A model generated the notes under the pieces. The model was not told the DNA's origin, made no database searches, and worked only from the letters and a program-made list of their open reading frames with translations. Shown here piece by piece: positions 31,942 through 53,196 of a stretch of 53,275 nt of DNA. Position 1 is the stretch's first letter, and the number at the start of each line of letters is the position of its first letter. The stretch is from UHGV virus genome UHGV-0205694; one strand, written 5' to 3'. The DNA comes from a virus. Position numbers and translations under genes: made by a program.

Positions 31942-32322
31942 ATGTTTAACCCTGATAAATACCTTTCAGTCACCTGGCTGAAGGGCGGCAGAGTGTATCC
32001 GCAACTCGACTGCTTCGGCATTGTGAACGAAATCCGGGCGGACCTTGGGCTGCCTCTCTGGCCTGAGTTCGCCGGGGTAACCAAAGACGACGACGGGCTC
32101 GACCGCGAAGCGCGCCGGATGATGCTTTCACTGGAACGCTGCGAACCTTGTGAAGGTGCCGGGGTTGCCTGCTATTCCGGTTCAGCAGTCACCCATGTGG
32201 GGATCGTCGTCAATATCGGTGGCATGCTGCACGTGGCGGAATGCAATCCGGTCACGAACGTCACCTTTCTGCTTTTACCGCGATTTAAGCGGCGATTTGT
32301 CAAAGTGGAGTTCTGGCAATGA
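31942..32322 (+). CDS. NlpC/P60-like tail protein (lambda K-like), putative
   Basis: Cys...His spacing (DCFGIV...THVGIV); position before the host-specificity protein. Confidence 0.45.
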   Translation: MFNPDKYLSVTWLKGGRVYPQLDCFGIVNEIRADLGLPLWPEFAGVTKDDDGLDREARRMMLSLERCEPCEGAGVACYSGSAVTHVGIVVNIGGMLHVAECNPVTNVTFLLLPRFKRRFVKVEFWQ

Positions 32323-35300
32323 CTATTCGTTTTTACCCGTCGCGGCTGCCTGGTGAACCGCTGGAAACGCATGAGCATGGCGTTACCACCATTCGCAGCT
32401 GGCTGGTTGCCAATGTCGAAGATTATGAGGATCGGGATGTTCCTCCGCTGGCTATTGAACTGGATGGCCAGCCGGTACCACCTGGCGAATGGGCGTTTTG
32501 CATCATCCGGCCGGAGAGCGATGTCCGCATGTACCCGGTTCCTTTCGGGCTTGAAGTAGCAACGATCGCATGGATAGGGGTAGGTATCGCCGTGGCAACG
32601 GCGGCTTATTCACTGTTCATGATGGGTAATATTGATGCTGGTGGCTATACGTCATCCACCGGACGAAGCCTCGACCTGAACCCCGCGAAAGCAAACAGCG
32701 CGAAACTGGGTGATGCGATTCGTGAAGTTTTTGGGCGCGTACGTATTTATCCGGATTATGTTGTGCAGCCCGTTACCCGGTTCGATGCTGCCGATCCCAC
32801 GAAAATGCGCGTACAGATGCTGCTGTGCCTTGGTGTCGGAGCTCTGGATTATACCAATGGCGATATCCGGGTTGGCAGCACGCCTGCATCGACCCTGCCG
32901 GGATTCAGCAGCACGCATTATCCCCCTGGTGCGGACGTATCAGGTGATGAGCGCAGTGAAAACTGGTTCAACAGTACGGAGGTGGGCGGGACGTCATCCG
33001 GTACCGGGCTGGACATGGCCCAGACGTCGCCGGATGCGGACGACATTATCGCAGACAGCATGACCGTTGCCGGAGCAGATGTAACGTTTACCGGGCTGGA
33101 CACGGATGACGGCGATGATGACGACGAGAACGACAATTCTCTTCCGGATAGCTGGGTAGAAGGCGCGATTGTTGAGATAAAGGCTCCCGCCAACTACCAG
33201 ATATCAACGGCGGCCGGGTACAGTGTTATCGCGAGTCCGCTGCTGACGGAGATCGCGCCGGTGGTTGGTATGCCGGTGACGCTGGGGTTTAACTCAGTCG
33301 ATTACGATCTGTTTATCGCGTCATATACACCGGGTCAGGCCGCCGTCCCCGGCGTCGGTGGCAGCGCTGCCAAAATTCAGGCCAGCGCAGCCCCTACCAC
33401 CTACGACTTTTCGACCAGCTCCAGCACGTTCACGATCACGTGGCGTGGCACAACTTATACGGTGTCGCTGGTGGCGAACTATGTCTCAATGTCGGGACTG
33501 CTGGCGGCCATCACCGAGGGGCTGACTGGCTCCGGTCTGGTCGCGCAGGACAACGGCGGCACCGTACTGATAACCGAGTCGGCCAGTCCGTTCGCGGGTG
33601 GGGCGGTCTCATCCTCTTCGCTGCCTGCTGCCGTTTTCGGTGATGCTCCGGTTTATACCTCCGGTACGGCGTCAACCGGCGGCAGCCCGGCGGTAACAGC
33701 AAACGTGACACTCGCCTATAACAGCGCCACGGGAACGGCCTTTTCCGGGATGCCGGAGGGGGTGCAACGGCTTTCACTTGCTCACCGCGGGAATGAGTAC
33801 CGGATTGTGTCAGCTGACGGCACGACGGCGACAGTGGGGCGCCTGGTAAACGGTGCAGTTGATGAGTCATGGCCGGGATTCACCACCAGGACGATGATCG
33901 ACTATGAGGCCACTGGCCTCAACGACACACTGAGCTGGCTGGGGCCGTTCCTGGTCTGTCCTGAAAATGAAACTGTGGATATGTTCGAAGTGAATTTTTC
34001 CTTTCCGAACGGCATCTGCGGTTTTGACAGCAAGGGCAAAAAACGACTCCGGCATGTTGAGTGGGAAATTCAGTATCGGATTTACGGCTCCGGCTCTGGG
34101 TGGGTCAGTAAACAGGGCGAGTACGCGCTGAAGAACGTCAACGGTCTGGGCTTTACTGAGCGGATTACACTCGGTTCACCTGGGCTTGTAGAGGTTCGTT
34201 GCCGACGGCGCAACGAACAGGGCTCCAATAATGCCAGGGATTCGATGTACTGGCAGGCACTGCGCGGGCGCCTGCTGACGCGTCCTTCATCCTATCCCGG
34301 CGTGTCGCTGATGGCGGTGACCGTCGAGACGGGCGGGAAGCTGGCGGCGCAGTCTGACCGCCGCGTAAACGTTGTTGGGACTCGTGCCTATGAAACCGGA
34401 ACGGCCAGAACCATTTCGGGGGCGCTGCTGCATGTCGGGAACTCGCTGGGACTGGAGATGGATGTCGACACCATCAACGCGCTGGAGTCTGCGTACTGGA
34501 CGCCACGGGGAGAGTATTTCGATTACGCTACCGGCGACAGTATCTCAGCGCTGGAAATGCTGCAGAAGATTACCACAGCGGGGAAATCGTATTTTCTGCT
34601 GAGTGATGGGCTCGCATCCGTAGGCAGGGAAGGGGTTAAGAACTGGTCGGGGATCATCAGCCCGCATGAAATGACCGAAGAACTGCAGACTAGTTTTACG
34701 GCACCGTCTGCTGATGATTACGATGGCGTTGATGTGACATATATCAACGGCATCACCTGGGCAGAGGAGACTGTGAAATGCCGAACACCCGACAATCCCA
34801 CGCCGGTGAAAATCGAGAACTACAAACTCGATGGGGTACTCAATCAGGACCACGCTTACCAGATAGGTATGCGGCGTCTGATGAAATATTTGCATCAGCG
34901 GCTGGGTCATAATACGACGACTGAGCTGGATGCACTGGTATATGAGTACGGTGATCGCATCCTGCTGACAGATGATATTCCAGGGAATAAAACCGTGAGT
35001 TGTCTGGTCGTGGATATGGCCACAACGGGTATCGAAACGGTATTTACCGTTTCCGAACAGCTGGACTGGACCTTTGAAAACCCGCGCGCAATTTTGCGCT
35101 ACCAGGATGGCTCTGCCTCGGGGCTGCTGGAGGCCACTTTCGTCGGGGATTATCAGCTGTCTGTTCCATGGCAAGCCGCTTTCGATGAAATCATGCTGAA
35201 CGATCCGAGCATTGAACCGCCGCGACTGGTGTTCTGTAGCTCAACGCGGGGTATCTATGACGCCATATTTGAGGAGATAGCGCCGCAGGCAGACGGAACC

Positions 35301-35378
35301 TGCCAGGTGACTGCAAGACAGTACAGCGACATTTACTACCAGTACGACGACGCCACATACCCCGGCGACGTCGCTTAA
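32319..35378 (+). CDS. tail host-specificity / central fibre protein (J-like)
   Basis: 1019 aa; position and size. Confidence 0.7.
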   Translation: MTIRFYPSRLPGEPLETHEHGVTTIRSWLVANVEDYEDRDVPPLAIELDGQPVPPGEWAFCIIRPESDVRMYPVPFGLEVATIAWIGVGIAVATAAYSLFMMGNIDAGGYTSSTGRSLDLNPAKANSAKLGDAIREVFGRVRIYPDYVVQPVTRFDAADPTKMRVQMLLCLGVGALDYTNGDIRVGSTPASTLPGFSSTHYPPGADVSGDERSENWFNSTEVGGTSSGTGLDMAQTSPDADDIIADSMTVAGADVTFTGLDTDDGDDDDENDNSLPDSWVEGAIVEIKAPANYQISTAAGYSVIASPLLTEIAPVVGMPVTLGFNSVDYDLFIASYTPGQAAVPGVGGSAAKIQASAAPTTYDFSTSSSTFTITWRGTTYTVSLVANYVSMSGLLAAITEGLTGSGLVAQDNGGTVLITESASPFAGGAVSSSSLPAAVFGDAPVYTSGTASTGGSPAVTANVTLAYNSATGTAFSGMPEGVQRLSLAHRGNEYRIVSADGTTATVGRLVNGAVDESWPGFTTRTMIDYEATGLNDTLSWLGPFLVCPENETVDMFEVNFSFPNGICGFDSKGKKRLRHVEWEIQYRIYGSGSGWVSKQGEYALKNVNGLGFTERITLGSPGLVEVRCRRRNEQGSNNARDSMYWQALRGRLLTRPSSYPGVSLMAVTVETGGKLAAQSDRRVNVVGTRAYETGTARTISGALLHVGNSLGLEMDVDTINALESAYWTPRGEYFDYATGDSISALEMLQKITTAGKSYFLLSDGLASVGREGVKNWSGIISPHEMTEELQTSFTAPSADDYDGVDVTYINGITWAEETVKCRTPDNPTPVKIENYKLDGVLNQDHAYQIGMRRLMKYLHQRLGHNTTTELDALVYEYGDRILLTDDIPGNKTVSCLVVDMATTGIETVFTVSEQLDWTFENPRAILRYQDGSASGLLEATFVGDYQLSVPWQAAFDEIMLNDPSIEPPRLVFCSSTRGIYDAIFEEIAPQADGTCQVTARQYSDIYYQYDDATYPGDVA

Positions 35379-35407
35379 TACCCCATAAAAACCCCTTATT
35401 AACTCTT

Positions 35408-35433
35408 TTCGCACAAACCCTCGTTTGGGCGAA
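35408..35433 (+). other. hix/gix-like 26-bp inversion crossover site (left)
   Basis: TTCGCACAAACC-CT-CGTTTGGGCGAA is an imperfect palindrome resembling gix TTCCTGTAAACC-GA-GGTTTTGGATAA; an inverted copy lies at 41522-41547. Confidence 0.5.
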
Positions 35434-35455
35434 CGCCTTTTTTGGAGCAAAAAAC

Positions 35456-37603
35456 ATGGCCTTTAACCCGGAGCTGGGGAGTACTTCTCCGGCGGTGCTG
35501 CTCGATAATGCCGAGCGCCTGGATAAGCTGGTGAACTCGGACGCTCTCACCGTGCCTGATCGCGCGGATGTTGATCTGGATACCTGGCGCGGATTCATGG
35601 CGAAAAATGACGAGATTCGTCAGAACCTTGTGCCATTGAGTAAGCAGTACATGACGCCTGAAGCGGCTCAGGCTGATATTGCAAACATCCCGGATGGCTC
35701 AACAACCTATGTACGCAGCCCTGATGATGCTTATCTGGCTGTTGAATACAAGAACACGGGTGGAACGTTAGAGGCTACCGGGCGCAGGATGATTTCAGCG
35801 GGATATGTTGACGCGTTGAGGGATTTAGTTATCACCGAACTGGCGAAGATTATGGCCTTCGGTGCCGCGCAGACAACTGATGCTTATCCGGATATTGCTG
35901 AACTGATTCTTGATAGTGTAGGGAATGCAGTTTATCGCCGCTTCGCGGACGGAACGAGCCAGTTTCCGGCGCTGATGATTGGTTCAGGGATTGAGCTTGT
36001 GCAAATGACGGGCGGAGGGTTTGTCTGCCAGATGCGCGCCACCGGAGAAGAAATATTTAATATTTCTGCATTGGGTAACCTGACGCATGGCAGCCAGACA
36101 ACGTGGTTTGCTGATGATGACAGTGTCAGTGATTATGCTGAAATACATATGGACGGACAGGGAAGAATTTTTCGGAGAGTTCTCACGGATGGTACTGTGG
36201 AGCAAGTGGGTGATGATACACCTGATGATGACGCCTCTGAATTCCCAATGGTTGCTTCAGTTGATGGAAACATCATTGCAGTAAACGGCAACAACGTTAC
36301 TCAGATAACGAACGACACCGGAGTTTCAAATATTGCTCCTGTAGCATTCGCTAAATTTCTTCGTTTTCTGTCCAACCTTAGCGGCAACTATCTGACGAAT
36401 CGCTCTACGTATAACGGGAAATACCGGGTGCGTGAAAGCAAGAATATCCTGCTTCATTACATTGGCACCGGGCAATCTCTTAAAGCAGGGGGATCGACGA
36501 TTAGCCAGGCTCCTGTCACTATCGCCTCAGAAGCAGACTATGGAGTGATCAGCTTTTCAACTGGCCCGAAGGTCGATTTCAAATACGATACTCTGGACGA
36601 ATCCCTGCTGGGATCGGCCACCCCTGCGCGAGAAAACGTGGGGACCCGTCCCGGCCAGGAGTCACCATCCAGCGGCATAGCTTATAAAATTCATGAGCTG
36701 ACAGGGCATACCGTTTTGGCCTCCACCGCTGCAAGTTCGGGTACAGATATTGCGGGGATTTCGGCTGGAACCGCCACGTTTACCGCCGCCACCAAAATGA
36801 TTCAGGCGGCCGTTGCGATGGCTGATGAACTGGGCATGGAGTATGTCCCGGTACTTGTGCTCATCCACGGAAACCAGAATGCGGCAGCAGGAACATCGAT
36901 ATCCAGTTATCGCACAGCGATGGAAACCCTGCGCACTCAGTATGAGTCTGTAATAAATGCCGCAACAGGCGAAACGCAGTCACTGCACATGTTTGTCGGG
37001 CAGCTATCCAACACGATCCCATATGGTGGCACTGCCGGCACGACAAAAACCAATAACATTGGCATCGCGCAGTACCAGGAGGCCCGTGATAACGCGTTAA
37101 TCCATCTCGCCAGCGCACAATATGCCCGCCCGTATTCAGACGGGGAGCATCTGACAAGCGCAGGATATCGGACAGAAGGTGAAGTTATTGGCGCGGTGGT
37201 TGGTGGGTGGCTGAATGACAACACAAAATCCTCGCTTGTGCCGATAGAGTCTGGTGTTGTGCAGTCCGGCACCACAATCACTATTCCTGTGGCGGGCTGT
37301 GTAGGTGATCTCGTGATTGACACCGCGAGGGTCACTGACCCCGGCAACTACGGATTTGTCCTGACCAGGGCCACTATTGCTTCGGTAGCCGTCAGCGGCA
37401 GCGGAACAGCGGCAAAAATAGTTATCACAAAGACCGATTCCACCACTGCGACGGCAATATCTTATGCAAGCCAGGGGATTGCGGGACAAAACCCTGGACC
37501 CGTTACTGGTTCGCGGGGGTGCATTCGTGACTCTCAGTCTGGATCATCACTATCCGGCCTGCCTCTCTATAACGATCTATGCGTTTTCTCCATCCAGCTT
37601 TAA
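35456..37603 (+). CDS. tailspike/tail fibre A with SGNH(GDSL)-type esterase motifs
   Basis: N-terminal ~110 aa shared with the inverted gene at 38967-41498. Downstream motifs IGTGQS (block I), IHGNQN (block III) and DGEH (block V). Confidence 0.65.
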   Translation: MAFNPELGSTSPAVLLDNAERLDKLVNSDALTVPDRADVDLDTWRGFMAKNDEIRQNLVPLSKQYMTPEAAQADIANIPDGSTTYVRSPDDAYLAVEYKNTGGTLEATGRRMISAGYVDALRDLVITELAKIMAFGAAQTTDAYPDIAELILDSVGNAVYRRFADGTSQFPALMIGSGIELVQMTGGGFVCQMRATGEEIFNISALGNLTHGSQTTWFADDDSVSDYAEIHMDGQGRIFRRVLTDGTVEQVGDDTPDDDASEFPMVASVDGNIIAVNGNNVTQITNDTGVSNIAPVAFAKFLRFLSNLSGNYLTNRSTYNGKYRVRESKNILLHYIGTGQSLKAGGSTISQAPVTIASEADYGVISFSTGPKVDFKYDTLDESLLGSATPARENVGTRPGQESPSSGIAYKIHELTGHTVLASTAASSGTDIAGISAGTATFTAATKMIQAAVAMADELGMEYVPVLVLIHGNQNAAAGTSISSYRTAMETLRTQYESVINAATGETQSLHMFVGQLSNTIPYGGTAGTTKTNNIGIAQYQEARDNALIHLASAQYARPYSDGEHLTSAGYRTEGEVIGAVVGGWLNDNTKSSLVPIESGVVQSGTTITIPVAGCVGDLVIDTARVTDPGNYGFVLTRATIASVAVSGSGTAAKIVITKTDSTTATAISYASQGIAGQNPGPVTGSRGCIRDSQSGSSLSGLPLYNDLCVFSIQL

Positions 37604-37616
37604 AGGACTGTAAATC

Positions 37617-38369
37617 ATGACTACCCGCTTTTATGTTGATAACGGCGTGACAGCCACGCGTTACCTGGACACTTACCCGTATCCAAACGACATCACGCAA
37701 CTACCAGCACTGATCCCCGGTATTATTTTGCAGGCGGATTTCGATGTGAATGATCCCGCCTCATTAACCAGAAACCGGGTTGGGGCTGCTATGTCCGTTG
37801 TTGGCTCTCCTGCTCTGGGTGATTACGGCGTCAGCCTTACTGAGGTAAACCACCTTGATACGAACATCGACATAGCAGCATATAACGGCAGCGATCTGAC
37901 AATGGTGACAATTGCAGTTCATCCAGGCGTTGTTGGTGCAATTGTAGGGCGCGCACAAATGAATGCCCCCCAGCGCTCGCGTGCGACGCAGACTACAACG
38001 ACAGGATGGCAGGCAAAATGGCTGACGTCTGCCGGAGCGGCGCAGCAGGCCATTATTGTCCCGTCCAGTGCAGCGGTCGATGGCGAAATGGCAGTCAGTC
38101 GGTTTGTGCGAGACAACGGTAGCGGATCAATGCTGACTAAGCTTGATCTGCCACGCACATCACAGTCAGCAACCGGCACCGCAGCGACGACTCCTTATGC
38201 TGTACCTTCGTCAAACATTCTGCTGGGCGGTTCGGTTGAGGGAGGCACGACAGCGAATATCTCTATGCGGGCCTGTCTGATTGTATCCAGGTCAATTACG
38301 AATACTGAAATGGCAACTATTTACACCTGTTACAAAAACTACTATCAGCTGAAAGGTAAAACTATTTAA
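37617..38369 (+). CDS. accessory tail fibre protein for cassette A, hypothetical
   Basis: Position downstream of tailspike A inside the invertible segment. Confidence 0.4.
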   Translation: MTTRFYVDNGVTATRYLDTYPYPNDITQLPALIPGIILQADFDVNDPASLTRNRVGAAMSVVGSPALGDYGVSLTEVNHLDTNIDIAAYNGSDLTMVTIAVHPGVVGAIVGRAQMNAPQRSRATQTTTTGWQAKWLTSAGAAQQAIIVPSSAAVDGEMAVSRFVRDNGSGSMLTKLDLPRTSQSATGTAATTPYAVPSSNILLGGSVEGGTTANISMRACLIVSRSITNTEMATIYTCYKNYYQLKGKTI

Positions 38370-38378
38370 GGGGCAAGT

Positions 38379-38573
38379 ATGGCTGGCTACATTGTCGATT
38401 ATCAGGCAACTAAAAACGGGCAGGTAATTTATTCTGGAACACTGGCGGTTGAGTCAGAGGGAACTGATGCTGCAGTAAAGGAGGCAGTTACAGCCGAACT
38501 GAACAACATCAATACCCAGTATGGCGGCGGCGTACCAGACTCCGTCATCGTTAACTCTTGGCTGGGAATTTAA
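38379..38573 (+). CDS. small hypothetical protein, cassette A
   Basis: Position only. Confidence 0.3.
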   Translation: MAGYIVDYQATKNGQVIYSGTLAVESEGTDAAVKEAVTAELNNINTQYGGGVPDSVIVNSWLGI

Positions 38574-38681
38574 TTTAACCGTAAAAGGATATATCTTCAT
38601 ATTATTTAAGATGAATAGATTTGCGGCTGTCAGTCATCTGGACAGCCGCTCTCATCCATTAAATCTGTGCTGTGAAATAAT

Positions 38682-38957
38682 TTATTGTGAAAAATCCTCC
38701 ATAGTCACAAGCTGCGCTTCTGCTTGTTCTGCCCACGACTTTGAAGATAAAACATCTAAAGTAATAGGGTAATCACCAGCGTTGACCTTCGCTCCATCAT
38801 CATATCGTACTGATATTGATGCCATTAACAGTCCCGCATCATCTTGCCTGACACTTTCAACAGCATAAATCAGGTCAATGTCTATCTCTTTATCGCACAG
38901 ATACCCACCCAGATAATAAATCTGGACTGTTTTTGTTGTTGATAATTTGAAAGCCAT
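38682..38957 (-). CDS. small hypothetical protein, cassette B
   Basis: Downstream of tailspike B on the minus strand. Confidence 0.3.
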   Translation of the reverse strand: MAFKLSTTKTVQIYYLGGYLCDKEIDIDLIYAVESVRQDDAGLLMASISVRYDDGAKVNAGDYPITLDVLSSKSWAEQAEAQLVTMEDFSQ

Positions 38958-38966
38958 AACAATTCC

Positions 38967-41498
38967 TCACGAAGGTAAATAATATTTTTCGCCATAAATC
39001 AGCTTGCACAGACTGAATGCCGCAGCATCTGCGCCAGCCTTGTAACTGACGGTATAGCCGAGGTCATTCGGATGGTTGTAATTAGGAGAGTTAAAAAGCG
39101 CCGACCATCCGTGAACCTCAACACCCAGCCTGAACGAGGGGATTTCAGCCTCCAGTACAAATGCGGATTTCCCACGCGCCACTGCACGCACCATGCTGTT
39201 GTAAAGGCCAAAACGTACATCCCCAACAACTTTAATGCCGCTTCCTGACCAGTCGGCCTCCACAAACGATTTTGAAGGTGGCGGGTCCAGCACCTCTTCA
39301 ATAATGCTGTCGAGATTGATGTGCTGAATGCTGGTATTAAGCAGGCCTGAAACCGGGATATTTTCTGCAACGGTGATGGTTTTCCTGTCCTCGGATATGG
39401 CGGCAATGGTGTAATCACCGGCATTCACACCGCTAACCCGAAGAATGTGCCCCGGTCGCAGGATTTGCCCGCCCCAGCTGGTCGCTGCGTTTCCTGTGTC
39501 ATAGGCAAATGCCGTGCTGTTTATAGTTTTGCTCACTGAATCGAATGTAAAATTCGCTGTAACGTTGAAGGTTCGAACCGGCCACAGGACATTAAGATCA
39601 CCCAGCGTGATGTTTTTGACGGTGGCGGACTCGACATTGTGGTGCGGCGTGGTGCAGACAATAACCACAGCGCCCTTTGCAGTGCACTGGTCAATAAGAT
39701 CTTCCAGCACTGCCCGCTGAAGTGGGTACGTGCGCCCGCGGTTAAAGTTCCCGGTCGGTGTGGCATCATTCATCCCGCCGACAATCAGCACGATATCCGG
39801 CCAGTCTTCAGGCTCACTGCTGGTGAAATAGGGCGAGTTTTGTAGCTGCGCGGCAAACTGGTGTATCGCCTGGCCTCCGATACTCTGGTTGTCGTCGATA
39901 AACTCAAATTCGCCATAGCCAGAAAGGTGCTCTTTCATCGCTTCAATAAACAAAGCGCTAGGAGAGAACGGCGCGCCCACCACACCCCCGTCAGTGGACC
40001 CAGCCCCCAGGCCTATGGAGGAGCCGGGCGTGGTTATAATTATGCGCTTCTTGGTTACAGTTCTGACGCCATTGCTGAACGAAATTTTACCGAATGGCGA
40101 GGTATTGGCCTGGGTTCCGTCACCGATAAGCTTTTTGCTCAGTTTAACGTAGGGGTCAGTGATTGCACCCTGCAGAGTGGTGACATCGCTTATGAGGTTC
40201 AGAATGTCGGTAGTCGGGTCCCCGGCATACAGCAATTTAAAGTTATTCTGTGGTGAGCCTCGGTATTGCACGGTAACAGGCATTGCTGCCCGCAGCTCTC
40301 CGCCAGTTAGTGCGGTATTGGCTCCTTTAAACAAACTACGTGTGACTGAGTTCCCGTAGAGGTCTGTAATAACCAGCGTTGTTGCACCGGTATTCGCCAC
40401 CACAGGCTCAAACGTTATCTGAGTACCGTCACCCAAAGAGCCAGGGATCGTGATTGATACCGCATCAGGAGTAGAGGTATCACTTGTCACTGTGGCTTTG
40501 GAATACGCATTCAATAAGCGGTTTCTGTCTGCCGGGTAGGTCAGCAGCCGAAAATCTGCTGAAGCGAAATTGAATTTAACGAGATACGTATAACCCGCTA
40601 CCAAATCACCAGCCGCGACGTTCGAACCGTTATTCTGCTTTATCTGGCGAGCGGTACCGCCATTGACTGAAAGCGTTGGCGTTCTGGTCGTGTTAGTAGC
40701 GTTCGGAGTAAAGAGGAACACACGATCAGAAGCAACAATACCAGGGATTGTAGATGCGGTGCCGGAATATGCGTCGGCATTATTAACAACTCCCGAAAGT
40801 AACGCGATGCTGTTTATTTCCAGTGCTGAAATTCTGACAGCCAACTCGGCCGCTACCGGACCGGATGCGACCATAACAAAATTATTAGCAGTCCCGGTTC
40901 TGAATTGCATCAAAACGGGCTGGCCCAGAAGTAATTCACCTCCGGTTAACGTCCCGTTGTTTTGCTTCTGTATTGCGCGCGTGACGCTGTTTCCCTTCGT
41001 ATCTGTAACGGTCACATTGACCGCAGCAGTGTTTAGAATTGGGGAAAGAAAATAGACCAGGCTACCTTCAATCAACAGTCCAGGAATGGTGATAGCGATA
41101 GTATTAGCCGCGCTGCTGCTAACCGCGGTAGCAGACTGATATCCCGTTGGAATCGCCGATGGCATTTTCCGACCCGTTGCAACCAGCGTACCGCCGACAT
41201 TCATATACTCAATAGCCAGATAAGCATCATCAGGACTGCGCACATAGGTTGTTGACCCATCCGGGATATTGACGATATCCGTCTGGGCCGCCTCAGGCGT
41301 CATGTACTGCTTACTCAATGGCACAAGGTTCTGACGAATCTCGTCATTCTTCGCCATCATTCCGCGCCAGGTATCCAGATAAACGCCAGCGCGGTCCGGT
41401 TCGGTCGGCGCATCACCATTCACCAGCTTATCCAGGCGCTCGGCGTTATCGAGCAGCACTGCGGGAGACGTGCTCCCCAGCTCCGGGTTAAAGGCCAT
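38967..41498 (-). CDS. tailspike/tail fibre B (alternative, currently inverted) with SGNH-like esterase motifs
   Basis: N-terminus ~85% identical over ~110 aa to tailspike A; C-terminal motifs TPGSSIG, GGMNDA and NHPNDLGY. Confidence 0.65.
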   Translation of the reverse strand: MAFNPELGSTSPAVLLDNAERLDKLVNGDAPTEPDRAGVYLDTWRGMMAKNDEIRQNLVPLSKQYMTPEAAQTDIVNIPDGSTTYVRSPDDAYLAIEYMNVGGTLVATGRKMPSAIPTGYQSATAVSSSAANTIAITIPGLLIEGSLVYFLSPILNTAAVNVTVTDTKGNSVTRAIQKQNNGTLTGGELLLGQPVLMQFRTGTANNFVMVASGPVAAELAVRISALEINSIALLSGVVNNADAYSGTASTIPGIVASDRVFLFTPNATNTTRTPTLSVNGGTARQIKQNNGSNVAAGDLVAGYTYLVKFNFASADFRLLTYPADRNRLLNAYSKATVTSDTSTPDAVSITIPGSLGDGTQITFEPVVANTGATTLVITDLYGNSVTRSLFKGANTALTGGELRAAMPVTVQYRGSPQNNFKLLYAGDPTTDILNLISDVTTLQGAITDPYVKLSKKLIGDGTQANTSPFGKISFSNGVRTVTKKRIIITTPGSSIGLGAGSTDGGVVGAPFSPSALFIEAMKEHLSGYGEFEFIDDNQSIGGQAIHQFAAQLQNSPYFTSSEPEDWPDIVLIVGGMNDATPTGNFNRGRTYPLQRAVLEDLIDQCTAKGAVVIVCTTPHHNVESATVKNITLGDLNVLWPVRTFNVTANFTFDSVSKTINSTAFAYDTGNAATSWGGQILRPGHILRVSGVNAGDYTIAAISEDRKTITVAENIPVSGLLNTSIQHINLDSIIEEVLDPPPSKSFVEADWSGSGIKVVGDVRFGLYNSMVRAVARGKSAFVLEAEIPSFRLGVEVHGWSALFNSPNYNHPNDLGYTVSYKAGADAAAFSLCKLIYGEKYYLPS

Positions 41499-41521
41499 GT
41501 TTTTTGCTCCAAAAAATAGCG

Positions 41522-41547
41522 TTCGCTTAAACGAGGGTTTGAGCGAA
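41522..41547 (+). other. hix/gix-like 26-bp inversion crossover site (right, inverted)
   Basis: TTCGCTTAAACG-AG-GGTTTGAGCGAA; its reverse complement matches the left site at 23 of 26 positions. Confidence 0.5.
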
Positions 41548-41590
41548 CGCCAGGAGCTTTTTACAATCAGCTATTTCAAAGGGTTACATC

Positions 41591-42142
41591 ATGCTGATTG
41601 GTTACGCCAGGGTGTCAACCGGGGATCAAAACCTCGATTTACAGAAAAATGCGCTGATCCGCGCAGAATGTGAGCTGGTTTTCGAAGATACGGCGAGCGG
41701 GAAGAATGCCCGGAGACCAGGGCTAAAACGCGCGCTGCGGCGGCTGCGACCGGGGGACGTGCTGGTCGTCTGGAAACTGGACAGACTGGGCCGCAGCGTG
41801 CGCGATCTGATTACGCTCGTGTCGGAGCTGCAGGCGCGCGGGGTGAATTTCCGCAGCCTGACGGACAGCATAGATACCAGTACGCCAGCAGGACGCTTTT
41901 TCTTCCATGTAATGAGCGCTCTGGCGGAAATGGAAAGAGAGCTGATCGTCGAGCGTACCCGCGCCGGTTTAGCAGCGGCAAGGGAGCAGGGGCGCATCGG
42001 TGGTCGCCGCCGGGTAATGACCGAAGAAGTAGTGGAACGCTGCCGCCGGATGTTGGATGCAGGTGCCACCCGTCAGCAGGTGGCGGGAGTGATCGGGGTA
42101 GATGTGAAGACGATCTATAAGTACCTGCCAGCTGCTGAATAA
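41591..42142 (+). CDS. serine recombinase, DNA invertase (Hin/Gin/Pin/Cin family)
   Basis: MLIGYARVSTGDQNLDLQ catalytic-Ser N-terminus; 183 aa; C-terminal HTH. Confidence 0.85.
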   Translation: MLIGYARVSTGDQNLDLQKNALIRAECELVFEDTASGKNARRPGLKRALRRLRPGDVLVVWKLDRLGRSVRDLITLVSELQARGVNFRSLTDSIDTSTPAGRFFFHVMSALAEMERELIVERTRAGLAAAREQGRIGGRRRVMTEEVVERCRRMLDAGATRQQVAGVIGVDVKTIYKYLPAAE

Positions 42143-42808: not shown

Positions 42809-42809
42809 T

Positions 42810-43258
42810 GAAAGGATTTAGTTTCTCGATAAAACATAAGAAGAGCCTTGCGATAATCCTGGTTCGTTCCTGTAACGTATCCCTTGCTGACGATTAAGGC
42901 GCTACAGTGTAATATGCAGGCCAGCATACGGACAGGTAGGTTTGAGATAGTGTCCACCGATGTGTCCATTAAATAGAAAACGTTACAAAATAAGGTTAAA
43001 AAATCCTTATATATGAAGAATATAAGAAACTTTTCAATCATCGCTCACATCGATAATTGACACCAAGACACCCTAAGCCAACCTTAGACAATTTCTCGCT
43101 CAAGACCCGCCACAATCAACCCTCTTCGAAAAACTACTGTTTACATATACAGACAACCTAAGACAACGTAAGCCACTCTTTTTGTGTCCATAGCCGCGTC
43201 CATGAACTATGATGGACACGATCACAACATTTCTGATGGACACGGTGGATTATTTTCT
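42810..43258. other. AT-rich attP-like region with candidate arm-type repeats upstream of int
   Basis: CCTTAGACAAT / CCTAAGACAAC and two GATGGACACG repeats; position next to a P4-type integrase. Confidence 0.35.
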
Positions 43259-44488
43259 ATGGCTATTTCAGATAGTTATCTAAAGTCTTGCCTCGGGCGT
43301 GAAAGAGAAAAGGTCGAAGAGAAATCAGACCGCGACGGCCTGTGGGTGCGCATATCCCGGAAGGGGGCGGTAACCTTTTTCTACCGTTACCGTTTTCTTG
43401 GTAAGCAGGACAAGATGACGATCGGTAGTTATCCTGAGTTTGGATTAAAAGCAGCTCGTGAGGAGGTCGTTAAATGGTCGGCTATCCTCGCCCGGGGTGA
43501 GAACCCCCGGATCCGCCAGAGTCTGGATAAAGCAAAAATAAACAGTCAGCACTCGTTTGAAGAATTATTTCGTGAATGGCACGAGATGGTCTGTATCCAA
43601 AAGGAAACGGCTGACCAGATCCTGAGAACGTTCGAACTTCATGTATTCCCAAAGCTCGGGAAGTACCCGGCTAACCAACTCACATTACATAATTGGCTAA
43701 CCGTCCTGGACCGACTCGCCGAAGGCTACACAGAAATCACGAAGCGGGTGATCAGTAACGGCCGGCAGTGCTATTCATGGGCAGTTAAGCGCCAGTTACT
43801 GGAAAATAACCCACTGTCAGAGCTTTCCGGGCGTGACTTTGGCATTCAGAAAAAGATGGGGGAGCGGACGCTTAATCGCAAAGAACTGGCCATTGTCTGG
43901 CGTGCTATTGAAGATTCCCGCCTCATGGAAAGAAACAAGATAATGTACAAGTTATGCCTGGTTTGGGCTTGCAGGGTTGGGGAGATCCGTTTGGCAGAAG
44001 TTCAGCACTTTGATTTTGAAGAAGGTGTATGGACAGTGCCATGGGAAAACCACAAGACCGGTCGCAAGACCAAAAAGCCGCTGATAAGGCCGATCATCCC
44101 AGAAATGTTACCATTACTAAAAAGGGCCATTGAACTGGCACCCGGCCGGTATGTCTTCTCAAGGTATGAGGATAAGCCGATGAGTGAAGGTTTCCACTTA
44201 AGCATCAGCAGCAACCTGGTTAAGTTTATGCTGAAGTCATACAGTGAGCAGGTCCCTCACTTTACCGTTCACGATCTGCGCAGAACAGCGAGAACTAACT
44301 TTTCTGAGCTGACGCAACCGCATATTGCAGAAATTATGCTGGGGCATAAATTGCCCGGCGTCTGGTCAGTCTATGACAAGCATACTTATATCGAAGAAAT
44401 GCGCGATGCCTATAGCAGATGGTGGGCTCGACTGATGAGCATCATCGAGCCCGATGTGCTGGAGTTCACGCCGAGGCATGCCGGGTAA
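43259..44488 (+). CDS. tyrosine integrase, P4-like (N-terminal arm-binding DUF4102-type domain); longest ORF begins at 43184
   Basis: GLWVRISRKGAVTFFYRYRFLGK...IGSYP N-domain; catalytic HDLRRT box and C-terminal Tyr. Confidence 0.8.
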   Translation: MAISDSYLKSCLGREREKVEEKSDRDGLWVRISRKGAVTFFYRYRFLGKQDKMTIGSYPEFGLKAAREEVVKWSAILARGENPRIRQSLDKAKINSQHSFEELFREWHEMVCIQKETADQILRTFELHVFPKLGKYPANQLTLHNWLTVLDRLAEGYTEITKRVISNGRQCYSWAVKRQLLENNPLSELSGRDFGIQKKMGERTLNRKELAIVWRAIEDSRLMERNKIMYKLCLVWACRVGEIRLAEVQHFDFEEGVWTVPWENHKTGRKTKKPLIRPIIPEMLPLLKRAIELAPGRYVFSRYEDKPMSEGFHLSISSNLVKFMLKSYSEQVPHFTVHDLRRTARTNFSELTQPHIAEIMLGHKLPGVWSVYDKHTYIEEMRDAYSRWWARLMSIIEPDVLEFTPRHAG

Positions 44489-44756
44489 GGCGCCCCTTTA
44501 CATCCCTTACCAGATCGTTGAGGTGTGACATAGGGCGGCGCGTTCTGCGTCGCATCTCTTTTTCCTGCCACTCGGTGACCTTGCTCTTTAGCCACTTATT
44601 TGGACCGCCCATATAGGAGCAGTCCGGTGCAGGGAATGGATTATCATTTTTCTTTCGCTTCCGGTAGCGATCGAGTGTCCGCGGTGTGATGCTCAGTTGT
44701 TCGCAAATATCGCGAGTTTTCATTAATTCGAGTTCGTTGCCCATCATTTCCTCCAC
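44466..44756 (-). CDS. AlpA-family excisionase/regulator-like protein
   Basis: ICEQLSITPRTLDRYRKRKKNDNPFPAP...W; small HTH protein next to int. Confidence 0.55.
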   Translation of the reverse strand: MEEMMGNELELMKTRDICEQLSITPRTLDRYRKRKKNDNPFPAPDCSYMGGPNKWLKSKVTEWQEKEMRRRTRRPMSHLNDLVRDVKGRLTRHASA

Positions 44757-44781
44757 TGGCCCTTTACAGGGCCATCTCTAA

Positions 44782-45021
44782 TCAGTCAGTCTGGCCCGGG
44801 AGACTTCTCAGTCTGCGCATTCCTGTCATCGCTGTGGCGACGTAGCTTTTATGGCGATTGACTACCTCAACCCAGACTTTCACTCCTTCAACTTCTACGG
44901 TGTAAGTCACTTTTCTTTCGCAGTGTCCATAATTCCCATAACGCTCAAAATGCTTCGCCAGTGCCGCATCGCATGCCTGACGCCCCAGCGGAGATTGTTT
45001 GCTTCGGTTTATCAGTCGCAT
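44782..45021 (-). CDS. hypothetical protein
   Basis: ORF in the leftward operon; start set at an internal Met to avoid overlap. Confidence 0.3.
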   Translation of the reverse strand: MRLINRSKQSPLGRQACDAALAKHFERYGNYGHCERKVTYTVEVEGVKVWVEVVNRHKSYVATAMTGMRRLRSLPGQTD

Positions 45022-45028
45022 ATCCACC

Positions 45029-45337
45029 TCACACAAATACATCAACCGGATCGCCAGCTGCACGCGCGTTGTCGTTAGCTTCACGGCGGAGGCCGAGAAC
45101 ATAACCAACGGGATCCCAACTGGACAGAATCGCGTTGAGCTCCTTCTGGCTATGCCAAGTTGTCAGGCGTTTTTTAAGCTCGGTGGCGCATGCGCGCACG
45201 TTCGCCCGGGTGGGGCCGGACATTTTCATGCACAGGCATAATGTCAACAGCAGATCAGAATACTCATCGGCGGCCGCGCGCAATGCTGCCGGGTCAATGC
45301 TGGCTTCCAGTTCGGATAAACGGTGTTTAAGGCTCAT
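45029..45337 (-). CDS. hypothetical protein
   Basis: ORF in the leftward operon. Confidence 0.35.
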   Translation of the reverse strand: MSLKHRLSELEASIDPAALRAAADEYSDLLLTLCLCMKMSGPTRANVRACATELKKRLTTWHSQKELNAILSSWDPVGYVLGLRREANDNARAAGDPVDVFV

Positions 45338-45819
45338 CAGTATTCCCCCCAGCTATAAGTTGACGCTATCGGGCCCGGAGCCGCGGCAGCCACAAACCCT
45401 GTATCTGCAGGCAATTTCTTAACCGTGCATCGATATCCACCTGTAATCATCCCTGCATCATGAAGCCCCGCCAGGCACATTTTCACCGTTTCTGCTGTAA
45501 GCTGGATTTTTTCAAGCTGATACATTTTCCGGTACACAAACGCTCGCAAAGCCTCTTCTCGCGTGTAGTGGTAACGAGAACGGTAAGCACCTTTTAAGCA
45601 GCGCTTTACGTGATATTTTTGATTCTCTTTCCGGCCGGTGTTGCGATACTGCACAAGCTGCTCAAACGTCATTTGCGGCATATCTTCGACATGCCAGAAG
45701 GTTTTCTCCGTCTCACGAATAATGACCCGCTTCCAAAGTGTTACGACCGGGCGACCTTCGCCATCATGACCATCGTCGTAGCGGTAGCAGTATTTTTTAC
45801 CGTCAGTGATTTTGCTCAT
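45337..45819 (-). CDS. hypothetical protein (160 aa)
   Basis: ORF in the leftward operon, coupled to the upstream gene. Confidence 0.4.
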   Translation of the reverse strand: MSKITDGKKYCYRYDDGHDGEGRPVVTLWKRVIIRETEKTFWHVEDMPQMTFEQLVQYRNTGRKENQKYHVKRCLKGAYRSRYHYTREEALRAFVYRKMYQLEKIQLTAETVKMCLAGLHDAGMITGGYRCTVKKLPADTGFVAAAAPGPIASTYSWGEY

Positions 45820-45853
45820 TTGATTACCGGGAGGGCGTACCCTCCCGCCTCCC

Positions 45854-46942
45854 TTAGCCCACGTATTCCGGTTTCATATCGTCAAGGGTGATGCGGAACT
45901 GTTCATACAGTTCATCACCAAGATGGCGTTTGGCGGCGGTGAGGGTGCCTTCAGCTTTAGCAAACAGCTCGACAGCTTCCGGTTCGCCAGGGTTAGGCAG
46001 TGAATTGATCGCGGCCTCAATCTTGTTTCGTGCATCAACGAGGTAGTAGCGTTTCACTGCCTTGTTTTTCAGTTCGGTATACAGAGCAGTACCCAGCAGT
46101 GCTTTTTGCGATTCGATATCTACGCGGATGGCTTTAGCCTGATCAACAGAACTTGCAGAATCAATCCGGTTGCGCAGTTCGTCCGCTACAGAGTCAACGT
46201 TGACTGCAGAGTCTTGCACGCTGGCGGAAGCGCCCGCGGAGCTTGTAATCTCATCCAGCGTGATTTTTTCAGCCTGAGCCGGGTTGATTACCTTTTCCTC
46301 GCGCTCGTCAATCTCATCTGCGGTATAGACACCGAGGATCACATCCGGGCAGTACAGCCGCGCCCAACGTTTAACGGCGAGATAAGCCAGCTGCTGACGG
46401 GGATCTGTCGCCCAGAGTGTTGAATTGCGAACCTGTGCCTGCGAAAGCATCAGGACAAGCTCGCGAGGTTCGGATTCTCCTTTGAGCGTTGCCCAGGCGC
46501 GAACGCCCACACCAGCTTCATCTTTCAAATTCCAGCCCGGAGCGATGTACTTCTTGTTCTGGCTGCTTGTCTTCTCTATGAAGCGCCCTACGATATTTTC
46601 CCATTCCCCGAACCATTCGAAGTGGATTCGATCCTTTGTTGGCGCCATGGTATTGATTACCGCATTCACCAGTTGCGCTTCATAGCCAAGAACACCTGAA
46701 TTACCCACGATGAATGTTTTCTGTGCCACTGCGAATGGGTCCATGCCCCAGCGTGCAGCCTGCATTACAACAGCCATGCACGCATCTGGTTTCCCGCGGT
46801 AATGCTCGGGCACGAAGTTTCCACTATTGGCCATTACCTCCGAGAGCGTGCGCAGGCGGTTGAACAATTCACCATTCGTCAGGATTGAAACGTTGTCGAT
46901 CTTCTGGGTCTGGTTGTCAGTAGTTGCGACTAAATTGGACAT
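45854..46942 (-). CDS. recT: RecT-family single-strand annealing protein
   Basis: 362 aa; pairs with the large exonuclease gene immediately upstream; composition resembles Rac RecT. Confidence 0.65.
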   Translation of the reverse strand: MSNLVATTDNQTQKIDNVSILTNGELFNRLRTLSEVMANSGNFVPEHYRGKPDACMAVVMQAARWGMDPFAVAQKTFIVGNSGVLGYEAQLVNAVINTMAPTKDRIHFEWFGEWENIVGRFIEKTSSQNKKYIAPGWNLKDEAGVGVRAWATLKGESEPRELVLMLSQAQVRNSTLWATDPRQQLAYLAVKRWARLYCPDVILGVYTADEIDEREEKVINPAQAEKITLDEITSSAGASASVQDSAVNVDSVADELRNRIDSASSVDQAKAIRVDIESQKALLGTALYTELKNKAVKRYYLVDARNKIEAAINSLPNPGEPEAVELFAKAEGTLTAAKRHLGDELYEQFRITLDDMKPEYVG

Positions 46943-46953
46943 TGTTTTTCCCC

Positions 46954-49893: not shown

Positions 49894-50032
49894 GTGATAG
49901 CCTCAATTTTGGGTGTTAGAATCCCCGGGCCATTGATAGCGCCCATTCAGGGTGTTCATTGGTTTTTGGTAATTTCCGGTGGAACTTTGGTCGGTGTCAC
50001 CGGACGTACAGCCCGCTTCGGCGGGTTTTACG

Positions 50033-50191
50033 TTAGGCCTCGTTGGCCATGGCGTCGTATTCGCCACAACGTTTCGAGCAATACGTTCTTTCACGTGGTA
50101 CTAACTGCGTGCCGTGAATGATGAGAATGGTCATCTTCACAACTTTTCCTTCCTCCAGTGCCTTGCGGCAATACGCACATCGTTTCTGCAT
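50033..50191 (-). CDS. small zinc-finger protein (CxxC...CxxC)
   Basis: MQKRCAYCRK...CSKRCGE. Confidence 0.3.
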   Translation of the reverse strand: MQKRCAYCRKALEEGKVVKMTILIIHGTQLVPRERTYCSKRCGEYDAMANEA

Positions 50192-50199
50192 AACGCCTC

Positions 50200-50391
50200 C
50201 TACATCTGTGCGGTGAATCCGGCGGGGTGTTCCGCCAGAACGCCTTTCAATGGCAGGCATTCGCCCTTTACACCTTGTTCAACAGCAGCTTCCTCACATG
50301 CTTTCTCGCTGTCATATACACCCAGCAAAACATCCTGATTACCGCCAATGAGCATGCCGACGGTTATCACCAGAGCGAACATTGTGCTCAT
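50200..50391 (-). CDS. small hypothetical membrane-anchored protein
   Basis: N-terminal hydrophobic segment. Confidence 0.25.
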   Translation of the reverse strand: MSTMFALVITVGMLIGGNQDVLLGVYDSEKACEEAAVEQGVKGECLPLKGVLAEHPAGFTAQM

Positions 50392-50600
50392 CAGTGGGTA
50401 CCTGCCGGAACGAGATAGGGCGCAAGCTCCCTTGAGTAAAAGGGCTGACGGATAAAGCGCAGATTTCCCTGCGGTTCATGGAAATAGGTTTTGCGAACAT
50501 GGTCGTATGAAACAGACCAGGGCGCGCCGGTGCGCGGATTACGCATTGGTATTGCGCGACCGCTGTTTGGAACTGGATTAGCCATAGATAACCCCCGCAA
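50391..50600 (-). CDS. small hypothetical protein
   Basis: ORF in the early leftward operon. Confidence 0.25.
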   Translation of the reverse strand: MRGLSMANPVPNSGRAIPMRNPRTGAPWSVSYDHVRKTYFHEPQGNLRFIRQPFYSRELAPYLVPAGTH

Positions 50601-50748
50601 TGCATATGATGAATAAAGGCCATAAGATGAGCCCGATAACTACCGAAATGACCAACGAACGAATGCCGTTTCTACTCATTTCAACCTCTGCCTTGTCGCC
50701 GGCTAGCGGAACGTTGCTACCTACTGCGCATTGATATTTCCACCTCAT
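50578..50748 (-). CDS. small hypothetical protein with C-terminal TMD; first gene after PL (start uncertain)
   Basis: Hydrophobic SLVISVVIGLILWPLFIICIAGVIYG; lies downstream of the PL-like promoter. Confidence 0.25.
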   Translation of the reverse strand: MRWKYQCAVGSNVPLAGDKAEVEMSRNGIRSLVISVVIGLILWPLFIICIAGVIYG

Positions 50749-50818
50749 CCCGGCATTCGTATGCTCCGGGCAGCTACTTCGTGGGCGTCCTGCCTTGGTG
50801 GCTTGTTGCGATGGAGTA

Positions 50819-50881
50819 ATTAAACACAATGTTTATTTTTATGTCAACAAAATGAGTTGATTTAGATAAACAAAAAGTTTA
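50819..50881 (-). promoter_or_regulatory. PL-like promoter with two operator palindromes (OL)
   Basis: Minus strand TTGACA (plus 50843-50848), ~17-18-nt spacer, TTTAAT. Palindromes are TAAACACAATGTTTA (50821-50835) and TAAACAAAAAGTTTA (50867-50881). Confidence 0.5.
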
Positions 50882-50958
50882 GTTGGGGGCGTTTTTTGGC
50901 AGGGGTAGCATGTTTTTAGTTCTTTTATTGGGCGGAAAATAGACAGTTGAGGTGAGCT

Positions 50959-51168
50959 ATGGACTATGAGGAAGCTGCGCAACTACGCTATCAAGAAATG
51001 TGCCGGATTGTAGGTGATGTCGTATTTGCGATGGTAGCTGAAGGGCATGAAACCAAAAGAGTGGCTATAGCTGACGTGATACGAACGGAGGTATCGAAGG
51101 GGCTGGGTAAGTGGGATGCTGACCAACTACAGTGCACGGAGCTTGCTGTGAAGTTGCCGGAAGAGTAG
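50959..51168 (+). CDS. small hypothetical protein on the opposite strand (69 aa)
   Basis: GAGGTG Shine-Dalgarno; lies between PL and the leftward terminator. Confidence 0.3.
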   Translation: MDYEEAAQLRYQEMCRIVGDVVFAMVAEGHETKRVAIADVIRTEVSKGLGKWDADQLQCTELAVKLPEE

Positions 51169-51173
51169 GGGCA

Positions 51174-51199
51174 ATAAAAACCCGGCTCGGAGGCCGGGT
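51174..51199 (-). terminator. rho-independent terminator ending the repressor operon
   Basis: Minus-strand ACCCGGCC-TCCGAG-CCGGGTT hairpin followed by TTTTT. Confidence 0.55.
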
Positions 51200-51211
51200 C
51201 AGTAAAGAAAC

Positions 51212-51589
51212 TTAAGCGGGTAAGTAGAGATACGATTGTGGCGGTTTAATGTTTCCGCCTAAGTCAGAGATGGGGAGAGGCTCCTGATAGCGTTCGACTT
51301 CACCGATCTTTATAGCGTATGCCTTGTCTCTGCCCGAGTAGTAACTATCAAAAAACTGTTTTGATATACCAGCATATTTTTTCGTTTCATTCCATAAAGA
51401 CTCTGGCTCTCCGGAAAGGATAGTTTCTATTTGGAACTGACCAACGACTTTACCAAGAGGCATTGTGGCATAGATTATAACAATGCTGATCTCTTGATTT
51501 TTAAAAATACCTTTTCGAAACTCAAATCGTTTAGTCCCATCCAAAATTTTTTCTGCAAATTCTGGCTTAATGGATAATAAAACTTTCAT
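51212..51589 (-). CDS. ASCH-domain (PUA-like) protein, 125 aa
   Basis: MKVLLSIKPEFAEKILDGTKRFEFRKG... is the canonical ASCH N-terminal strand motif; overlaps the upstream gene by 23 nt. Confidence 0.65.
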   Translation of the reverse strand: MKVLLSIKPEFAEKILDGTKRFEFRKGIFKNQEISIVIIYATMPLGKVVGQFQIETILSGEPESLWNETKKYAGISKQFFDSYYSGRDKAYAIKIGEVERYQEPLPISDLGGNIKPPQSYLYLPA

Positions 51590-52628: not shown

Positions 52629-52696
52629 GTGCCCTCACTTATAATCGAAAATCTCACATTATATTAATGTCCGTAAATCATTCAGATGTTTACAGT

Positions 52697-53092: not shown

Positions 53093-53104
53093 ATATCACG
53101 ATTT

Positions 53105-53168
53105 TAAACTAAAAGTTTATCGCCTCAACATTCATAAAGTTGACAATAAAATAAACATAATGTTTAAT
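53105..53168 (+). promoter_or_regulatory. OR/PR region: two operator palindromes and PR
   Basis: TAAACTAAAAGTTTA (53105-53119) and TAAACATAATGTTTA (53152-53166); TTGACA 53140-53145, 17-nt spacer, TTTAAT 53163-53168; GGGAG Shine-Dalgarno before ATG 53197. Confidence 0.55.
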
Positions 53169-53196
53169 TTGTGGTGTAACTTAAAGGGAGTGGTTT

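Follow-up and report, generated by a model that had tools for sequence, protein, structure and literature searches.

Leader-located crossover sites very probably exchange whole receptor-binding protein genes behind the tail operon of a lambda-like temperate phage

Two near-palindromic 26-bp sequences face one another across 6.1 kb of the viral genome UHGV-0205694. A gene for a serine DNA invertase starts just outside one of them, and each precedes a complete tail-fibre gene. What are these sites for, and what does recombination between them exchange? The stretch of DNA that we analysed (hereafter, the window) is 53,275 nucleotides long. Its carrier is a temperate siphovirus, lambda-like and equipped with a TipJ tail tip. 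Our answer, which we hold to be highly probable, is that a Gin/Hin-type invertase flips the 6.1-kb segment at the 26-bp sites. This would place one of two whole receptor-binding protein (RBP) genes behind the tail operon.

The segment spans positions 35408-41547 (6140 bp) and contains two convergent, complete RBP genes encoding proteins of 715 and 843 amino acids. The features needed to follow the argument are listed below.

35408-35433, no strand assigned: left crossover site, TTCGCACAAACC-CT-CGTTTGGGCGAA; positions 1-12 form its outer half and positions 15-26 its inner half.
41522-41547, no strand assigned: right crossover site, TTCGCTTAAACG-AG-GGTTTGAGCGAA; here positions 1-12 form the inner half and positions 15-26 the outer half.
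32319-35378, plus strand: open reading frame (ORF) of a TipJ/J-like tail-tip gene, 1019 amino acids (PHROG 469 tail protein, E=1e-287; phrog_31 central tail fibre J).
35434-35455, plus strand: leader of RBP-1, CGCCTTTTTTGGAGCAAAAAAC, with the Shine-Dalgarno sequence GGAG at 35444-35447; it moves with the segment.
35456-37603, plus strand: RBP-1, complete tail-fibre gene, 715 amino acids (PHROG 4201 tail fibre protein, E=7e-90), here behind the tail operon.
38967-41498, minus strand: RBP-2, complete tail-fibre gene, 843 amino acids, facing the invertase side.
41499-41521, minus strand: leader of RBP-2, CGCTATTTTTTGGAGCAAAAAAC; it moves with the segment.
35438-35800, no strand assigned: left arm of a 363-nt inverted repeat, 84% complementary to the right arm at 41154-41516.
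41591-42142, plus strand: Gin/Cin/Hin-family serine DNA invertase, 183 amino acids (Pfam Resolvase, E=5e-50, and HTH_7; PHROG 125 DNA invertase).

The two 26-mers had been proposed from the letters of the window alone (the sequence-only reading), and their coordinates and sequences were confirmed when we read them again. The left and right sites are reverse complements at 23 of 26 positions, as claimed, with mismatches at positions 6, 20 and 21. Both are imperfect palindromes whose half-sites agree at 10 of 12 positions, and the central dinucleotides, CT and AG, are indeed reverse complements. The locus has thus two inverted 26-bp sites, with 12-bp imperfect half-sites and a matching 2-bp core. 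The half-sites (TTCGCACAAACC, TTCGCCCAAACG, TTCGCTTAAACG and TTCGCTCAAACC) fit a gix/cix-like frame, TT.....AAACC. Their general form is TTCGCNNAAAC(C/G), and TT.....AAAC(C) is the part common to gix and cix. The sequence-only reading had ascribed the skeleton TTC...AAACC-NN-GGTTT...GAA to the sites. This is exact for the outer half-sites; it fails for the inner half-sites, which read AAACG/CGTTT, with G instead of C at position 12. Using the pattern TTCGCNNAAACNNNNGTTTNNGCGAA, and allowing up to two mismatches, we found exactly two places in the 53-kb window, and these were the two sites. The mean number of occurrences in 100 dinucleotide-preserving shuffles was 0.00. The two sites are real and non-random.

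Both sites had been assigned to 5′ untranslated regions. This is correct and can be made more exact: they occupy an intercistronic leader within a polycistronic tail operon. Directly inside each site is a spacer of 4-5 nt that does not match its counterpart and differs from it by 1 nt in length (CGCC compared with CGCTA). The inverted repeat then extends inward, via TTTTTTGGAGCAAAAAACATGGCC..., past the start codon on both sides, again as first described. The ATG of a complete ORF begins 22 nt (left) or 23 nt (right) from the end of the site. The 363-nt repeat consists of both leaders and the shared N-terminal module, and is not the place of exchange.

Evidence for inversion comes from public assemblies. 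These were found by exact protein identity to RBP-715, RBP-843, the invertase and TipJ, and the contigs considered here are from the same phage, with flanks identical at 40 of 40 nt. The segment was present in both orientations and all four junction types were found. They are listed below, with the contigs designated by our L numbers.

TipJ side, window orientation: TTCGCACAAACC CT CGTTTGGGCGAA, CGCCTT..., 715 gene (window, L084/L102, L104).
Invertase side, window orientation: TTCGCTCAAACC CT CGTTTAAGCGAA, CGCTAT..., 843 gene (window, L088/L097, L091, L095, L096).
Invertase side, inverted: TTCGCTCAAACC CT CGTTTGGGCGAA, CGCCTT..., 715 gene (L083/L090, GCA_020117225.1; L089, GCA_901563825.1; L092; L093).
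TipJ side, inverted: TTCGCACAAACC CT CGTTTAAGCGAA, CGCTAT..., 843 gene (L103, L100, L099/L101).

The polymorphism at position 6 (A/T, outer half) always remained with the flank. The polymorphism at positions 20-21 (GG/AA, inner half), together with the spacer, always travelled with the segment. Hence, exchange took place within positions 7-19 of the 26-bp site. In L103, every diagnostic single-nucleotide polymorphism (SNP) of the coding repeat also travelled with the segment. Exchange is inside the 26-bp site and outside the 363-nt coding repeat. It is also reciprocal and conservative; the hybrid sites are 26 bp long and no bases were gained or lost. Mapping of the inversion junctions had been proposed as the check on the sites, and nature has provided it: the exchange falls at the 26-mer, not in the N-terminal coding repeat. 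Together with the adjacent Gin/Cin-family gene, the hybrid junctions support the original identification of gix/hix-like crossover sites of a serine invertase. Because the diagnostic SNPs are only 14-15 nt apart, the hybrid sites could not be produced by an assembler placing the segment in the wrong orientation.

Some samples contained both forms. Metagenome ERZ28648348 held both recombinant junctions (L100 and L092), and metagenomes ERZ27237787 and ERZ28583303 each held junctions of both orientations. This fits ongoing switching, though mixed strains are also possible. Copies with identical proteins are found in either orientation, and in some metagenomes side by side; the switch has therefore been active very recently in the window lineage.

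Isolate assemblies also showed contig ends at the sites. Contigs L085 (GCA_020116915.1), L086 (GCA_053109735.1) and L087 (GCA_045302155.1) all begin 18-29 nt 5′ of the RBP-715 ATG, just inside the site. L086 and L087 have lengths of 6.05 kb, approximately the size of the segment interior. Short-read assemblies break at the crossover sites, possibly because sequenced cultures contain both orientations.

The arrangement recurs in related loci. Our scan of IMG/VR with the invertase gave more than 590 relatives, of which we took the 80 loci with at least 87% identity. Nearly all had exactly two sites. One site was always 69 nt 5′ of the invertase (site start to start codon) and the other was 3.5-8.4 kb further upstream. 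The core dinucleotide is non-palindromic, and divides the loci into two classes within each of which it is invariant. Class A comprises about 57 loci, plus the window. Here the core is CT/AG and each site falls within the leader of a whole gene. In every one of the 53 class-A loci that we examined, GGAG and an ATG are present 20-23 nt inside both sites, and the ORFs in the segment are complete. The first 360 nt of the two RBP genes are 53-94% identical (median 67%, 53 loci), the nucleotide diversity of the site is 0.026, and the segments, of 5.3-8.4 kb, carry many RBP types. Class B comprises about 24 IMG/VR loci (e.g. L026, L031, L048, L065 and L079) with the core TG/CA. Here, the site is in frame within the RBP ORF, where it encodes LRSNLGS, and the constant N-terminal part is outside the segment. 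This constant part, of 136 amino acids in several loci and more in others, is a homologue of the N-terminal module of class A (MANIEKLGSSSPEVLLKNATNLDKLVNG compared with MAFNPELGSTSPAVLLDNAERLDKLVNS). The fusion within an ORF that typifies the Mu G, P1 C and e14 P switches is therefore a property of class B, and is absent from the window and from the 53 class-A loci.

Opposite orientations of the same segment were found in 10 pairs of related loci. In five class-A pairs the inverted block spans exactly site to site. For the near-isogenic class-B pair L079/L080, the breakpoints are between positions 7 and 16, an 8-bp interval (8-15) that includes the core. Finer junction mapping with L004/L006, L010/L012, L007/L018, L001/L049 and L025/L037 was abandoned; the spacer (4-6 nt) did not track the gene cleanly in these class-A pairs because their flanks are only 82-89% identical.

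The invertases of class A and class B are 85-97% identical and have no fixed amino acid difference. The half-site consensus, and the location of one site 69 nt 5′ of the invertase, are alike in both classes. Of the two kinds of site, that of class A is the more palindromic. As essentially the same invertase runs the in-ORF design in sister phages, these comparisons suggest that phages can pass between the leader and in-ORF designs during evolution.

We found the exact class-A pattern in at least 120 IMG/VR stretches. It is also present in species-representative genomes (GTDB) of Raoultella and Klebsiella, none of them close to the window, in E. coli str. 3426 and in the inducible Klebsiella siphovirus KPP5665-2. 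The arrangement is common in Klebsiella and Raoultella prophages and is found in some E. coli prophages. Two further relatives were noted. Klebsiella phage ST846-OXA48phi9.2 (L002, MK416022; 6740-6980) is a locked derivative that kept only the left site. It has lost the right site together with the 5′ (catalytic) part of the invertase gene, whose 3′ remnant is annotated as a 41-amino-acid 'Hin recombinase'. A 1095-nt contig of Streptomyces sp. NPDC088196 (L114, NZ_JBFBIU010000098.1) is 91% identical to window positions 34808-35700 (the TipJ 3′ end, the left site and the RBP 5′ end). This contig is almost certainly contamination with enterobacterial phage DNA.

The invertase gene starts 43 nt outside the right site. 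Its product is a small serine recombinase, close to Gin and Cin, with an N-terminal resolvase domain and a C-terminal helix-turn-helix. Gin structures 3UJ3/4M6F align to residues 1-181 (E=1e-71) with the catalytic Ser9 aligned, and the protein is 68.7% identical to P1 Cin. In the Gin alignment His106 (FFHVM motif) and Met114 (AEMERE motif) are wild-type; known Fis-independent mutants of Gin and Hin are altered at these positions. The recombinase and its sites show each Gin/Hin/Cin/Pin feature that is open to testing in silico, and the enhancer part is plausible. Two elements bear on this last part and on expression of the invertase.

41621-41695, no strand assigned: candidate recombinational enhancer at nt 31-105 of the invertase gene; constraint is strongest at approximately nt 34-85.
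41539-41567, plus strand: invertase promoter-like element, TTGAGC-17-TACAAT, a consensus match; its −35 hexamer is part of the right site's outer half.

Invertase codons 11-35 have a synonymous diversity of 0.15-0.21, compared with 0.35-0.41 elsewhere in the gene, in both classes. In class A they are the lowest 25-codon window of the gene. The constrained block is approximately 85-160 bp from the centre of the right site. In the P1 record the Cin enhancer is annotated at cin nt 19-90, which is the same alignment position as the trough in synonymous diversity. The Hin enhancer is a 65-bp element inside the invertase gene, approximately 100 bp from the nearest site, hixL, and its Fis sites are 47 bp apart (PMC3798978). 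The best G-N13-C 15-mers in the window gene are at nt 31-45 and 71-85, 40 bp apart, and the candidate spacings are 40 or 56 bp. The second of these 15-mers, GCGCAGAATGTGAGC (gene nt 71-85), aligns with GCGCAGGATGTGAGC of cin. A recombinational enhancer inside the 5′ end of the invertase gene is plausible. A terminator-like sequence was also seen within the constrained block, on the minus strand at 41650-41665, where a small palindrome, TGCGCGGATCAGCGCA, is followed by TTTTTCTGTA. Termination here of antisense transcription into the segment could be an alternative, or an additional, cause of the synonymous constraint. As for the promoter-like element, both hexamers are invariant in 58 class-A sequences and the spacer between them is variable. 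Such conservation points to a genuine invertase promoter; bound invertase could block it, a possible form of autoregulation.

Several observations weigh against our interpretation and have to be set beside it. First, the natural SNPs confine the exchange to an interval of 13 bp (8 bp in relatives), which is wider than the 2-bp core. Second, catalysis is attributed to the adjacent invertase, and a co-resident Gin-family enzyme could be the flipper instead. Third, a scan of the invertase gene for Fis motifs detected no two cores at the 47-48-bp spacing of Hin. Fourth, in promoter and terminator scans, the match counts were at chance level, and expression of the operon-proximal RBP alone would follow from gene order. 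Finally, scaffold L099/L101 (ERZ28583303 scaffold_67) has a chimeric RBP gene after the TipJ-side site. It has an 843-type leader and 5′ end to approximately nt 149, and is 715-type from approximately nt 206. The switch falls in a 56-nt stretch that is identical in both genes of the coding repeat. The same sample, ERZ28583303, also holds the other orientation, with an invertase-side AA junction (L096). Hence, the chimera is likely to be a metagenome mis-assembly, though it may be real homologous recombination.

What else could account for the locus? The cassette may have been invertible in an ancestor and be fixed now in this genome. Locked derivatives, of which ST846-OXA48phi9.2 is an example, show that this can happen. 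However, the window keeps both sites, matching cores, a full-length invertase with Ser9 and the promoter-like element, and its protein-identical copies are found in both orientations, sometimes within one metagenome. We regard a relic as very unlikely.

Slightly less probable again is RecA-dependent homologous recombination between the 363-nt, 84% identical N-terminal repeats, with the palindromes being incidental. The coding repeat certainly exists, and in L099/L101 the gene type switches within a 56-nt identical stretch of it. That sole chimera, however, is from the metagenome that also holds the L096 orientation, and is likely to be an assembly artefact. By contrast, all recombinant junctions derived from isolates carry the whole leader, and all SNPs of the repeat, with the segment; their switch is inside the 26-bp site. 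Inverted copies also exist among the 53 class-A loci although the N-terminal coding regions can be as little as 53% identical, and even where the gene starts differ, MAFNPE as opposed to MAELNP (L004/L006 and L010/L012).

The least probable explanation is that the palindromes are RNA or DNA regulatory hairpins (terminator-attenuators or operators) before the RBP genes, and that the two database orientations are assembly errors: the sites do fold in the leader RNA, with a T6 run 4-5 nt later and right-side z-scores of −4.4 and −5.9, but a hairpin is expected of any palindrome, the fold at the left site is not superior to those of shuffled sequences (z=−1.5), complementarity is not maintained at the variable positions 6-7 and 20-21 (A stands opposite G in the left site), the SNPs of the hybrid sites, being 14-15 nt apart, demand k-mers that must exist in reads, and in every locus a Gin-family invertase is at a fixed 69 nt from one site.

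We return, then, to inversion by a Gin/Hin-type enzyme, which could operate as follows. By analogy with Gin and Hin, the invertase would bind the four 12-bp half-sites and synapse the two sites, probably on a Fis-bound enhancer in its own gene. It would then cut at the 2-bp core, CT/AG, and a 180-degree rotation followed by religation would flip the cassette conservatively. As in the known systems, cleavage would be staggered by 2 bp and pass through a phosphoserine intermediate, and the reaction would depend on host Fis and on supercoiling of the DNA. Because the sites are in the leader, 22-23 nt 5′ of the start codons, whole genes are swapped. Each end of the cassette brings an RBP gene with its own Shine-Dalgarno sequence, ATG and N-terminal module. 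The TipJ gene is the last fixed gene of the tail operon, and its transcript probably reads into the invertible segment. The RBP gene facing TipJ would then be transcribed among the last cistrons of this operon. The other would face the invertase gene and lack a promoter; our promoter scan detected no leftward promoter-like site between RBP-2 and the divergent invertase gene. RBP-2 is presumed to be silent in the window orientation. Upon inversion, the phage would alternate between the 715-amino-acid RBP and the 843-amino-acid RBP with its SGNH esterase domain, and these presumably confer two surface-glycan specificities.

How does this compare with the known invertase systems? The G segment of Mu is similar in many respects. 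The gene for a close relative of the invertase flanks the right end of the segment and is transcribed away from it. Each Mu site, 26 bp in length, has two 12-bp half-sites that form an imperfect inverted repeat around a non-palindromic 2-bp core; in the Mu record, gixL is TTATCCAAAACC-TC-GGTTTACAGGAA and gixR is TTCCTGTAAACC-GA-GGTTTTGGATAA. The segment contains two convergent sets of tail-fibre and accessory genes. The half-sites of the window differ from those of Mu in reading TTCGCNNAAAC(C/G). The Mu site lies within the S tail-fibre ORF, and a constant N-terminal part is joined to alternative C-terminal parts. In the window, the site is 5′ of the ATG, and whole genes with duplicated N-terminal modules are swapped. 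Mu is a myovirus whereas the window phage is a lambda-like siphovirus, and at least one of the window RBPs is of esterase type, not a Mu-type fibre.

The C segment of P1 shares with the window a closely similar invertase, and the position of its enhancer matches the constraint trough. The P1 record gives cix half-sites TTCTCTTAAACC and TTATCCAATACC. Unlike the window invertase gene, cin is on the other side of its segment, with cixL overlapping the cin 3′ end, and the cix sites are within the S ORF. Salmonella Hin/hix also has 26-bp sites, with the enhancer placed as described above (PMC3798978). As in the window, the Hin crossover site is in an untranslated leader between promoter and gene, so that the coupling is transcriptional and not translational. 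The layout is reversed, however. In the Hin system the promoter and hin are inside the segment and the regulated genes outside; in the window the promoter and operon are outside and the alternative genes inside.

The remaining genes of the cassette complete the picture of two alternative receptor-binding modules, each with downstream accessory genes, convergent in one segment.

37617-38573, plus strand: two ORFs 3′ of RBP-1, of 250 and 64 amino acids (phrog_4390, unknown function).
38682-38957, minus strand: ORF of 91 amino acids 3′ of RBP-2, presumed from its position to be an accessory gene.

The 250- and 64-amino-acid ORFs are inherited together with RBP-1 in other assemblies, and their position suggests accessory or assembly genes of RBP-1. 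Both RBPs match tail-fibre PHROGs, and they have an N-terminal region of approximately 115 amino acids in common. This shared module is probably the virion-attachment part, or anchor. Residues 494-619 of RBP-2 match Pfam Lipase_GDSL_2 (E=6e-8), an SGNH/GDSL esterase domain. A Pfam search gave no match for RBP-1, and sequence searches of the PDB gave none for either RBP. Relatives of the tail-tip gene are labelled 'host specificity factor TipJ family' in RefSeq.

A GC-rich hairpin with a 9-bp stem (GCGGCTGTC...GACAGCCGC) is located at 38623-38649, in the 108-nt gap between the convergent gene sets. No T-run adjoins it on either side; it may act as a transcriptional boundary between the two modules. 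Beyond the invertase/UmuD-like module, window positions 42809-53275 encode an integrase (43184-44488), RecT (45854-46942), an exonuclease VIII-like protein (46954-49893) and a CI-type repressor (52697-53092); this is the gene order of a phage early region. In at least seven other assemblies the UmuD-like gene is directly followed by host lepA. Hence, the window looks like an unintegrated (circular or virion) permutation, or a tandem copy, and attP is expected around 42809-43183.

Among the open-access papers that we searched, none described these sites, or tail-fibre inversion sites located in leaders. A preprint reports an inversion of approximately 5 kb, containing five ORFs, beside a DNA invertase in a prophage of Klebsiella pneumoniae ST14. 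No ORF was disrupted, and the sites were not analysed (doi 10.64898/2025.12.17.694638). Two large recent studies relating the RBPs of Klebsiella prophages to capsule type make no mention of inversion, and neither does the genome announcement of KPP5665-2. Host-range switches of this kind are known; the wiring here goes through the leader instead of the coding sequence, and the mechanism will not surprise specialists. On balance, we favour the view that the wiring itself, in which whole RBP cassettes are plugged behind a fixed tail operon under a Gin-family switch, is previously undescribed.

Placement in the leader frees the site from all coding constraint, whereas in class B the 26-mer has LRSNLGS to encode. 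Any complete RBP gene can also be exchanged at a leader site, provided that its N-terminal module is suitable, and the wide diversity of cargo agrees with this. The pairing of site and invertase is a compact, naturally validated inversion module, and the switch may help to explain why short-read assemblies break at these loci. If our interpretation is true, many of these temperate phages would carry two switchable receptor specificities, and the RBP found beside TipJ in a given assembly may be half of the potential specificity of that phage. A silent second RBP may confound predictions of capsule type from RBPs. The finding thus bears on the prediction of host range, on genome-wide association studies of prophage RBPs and K-loci, and on the choice and engineering of therapeutic phages.

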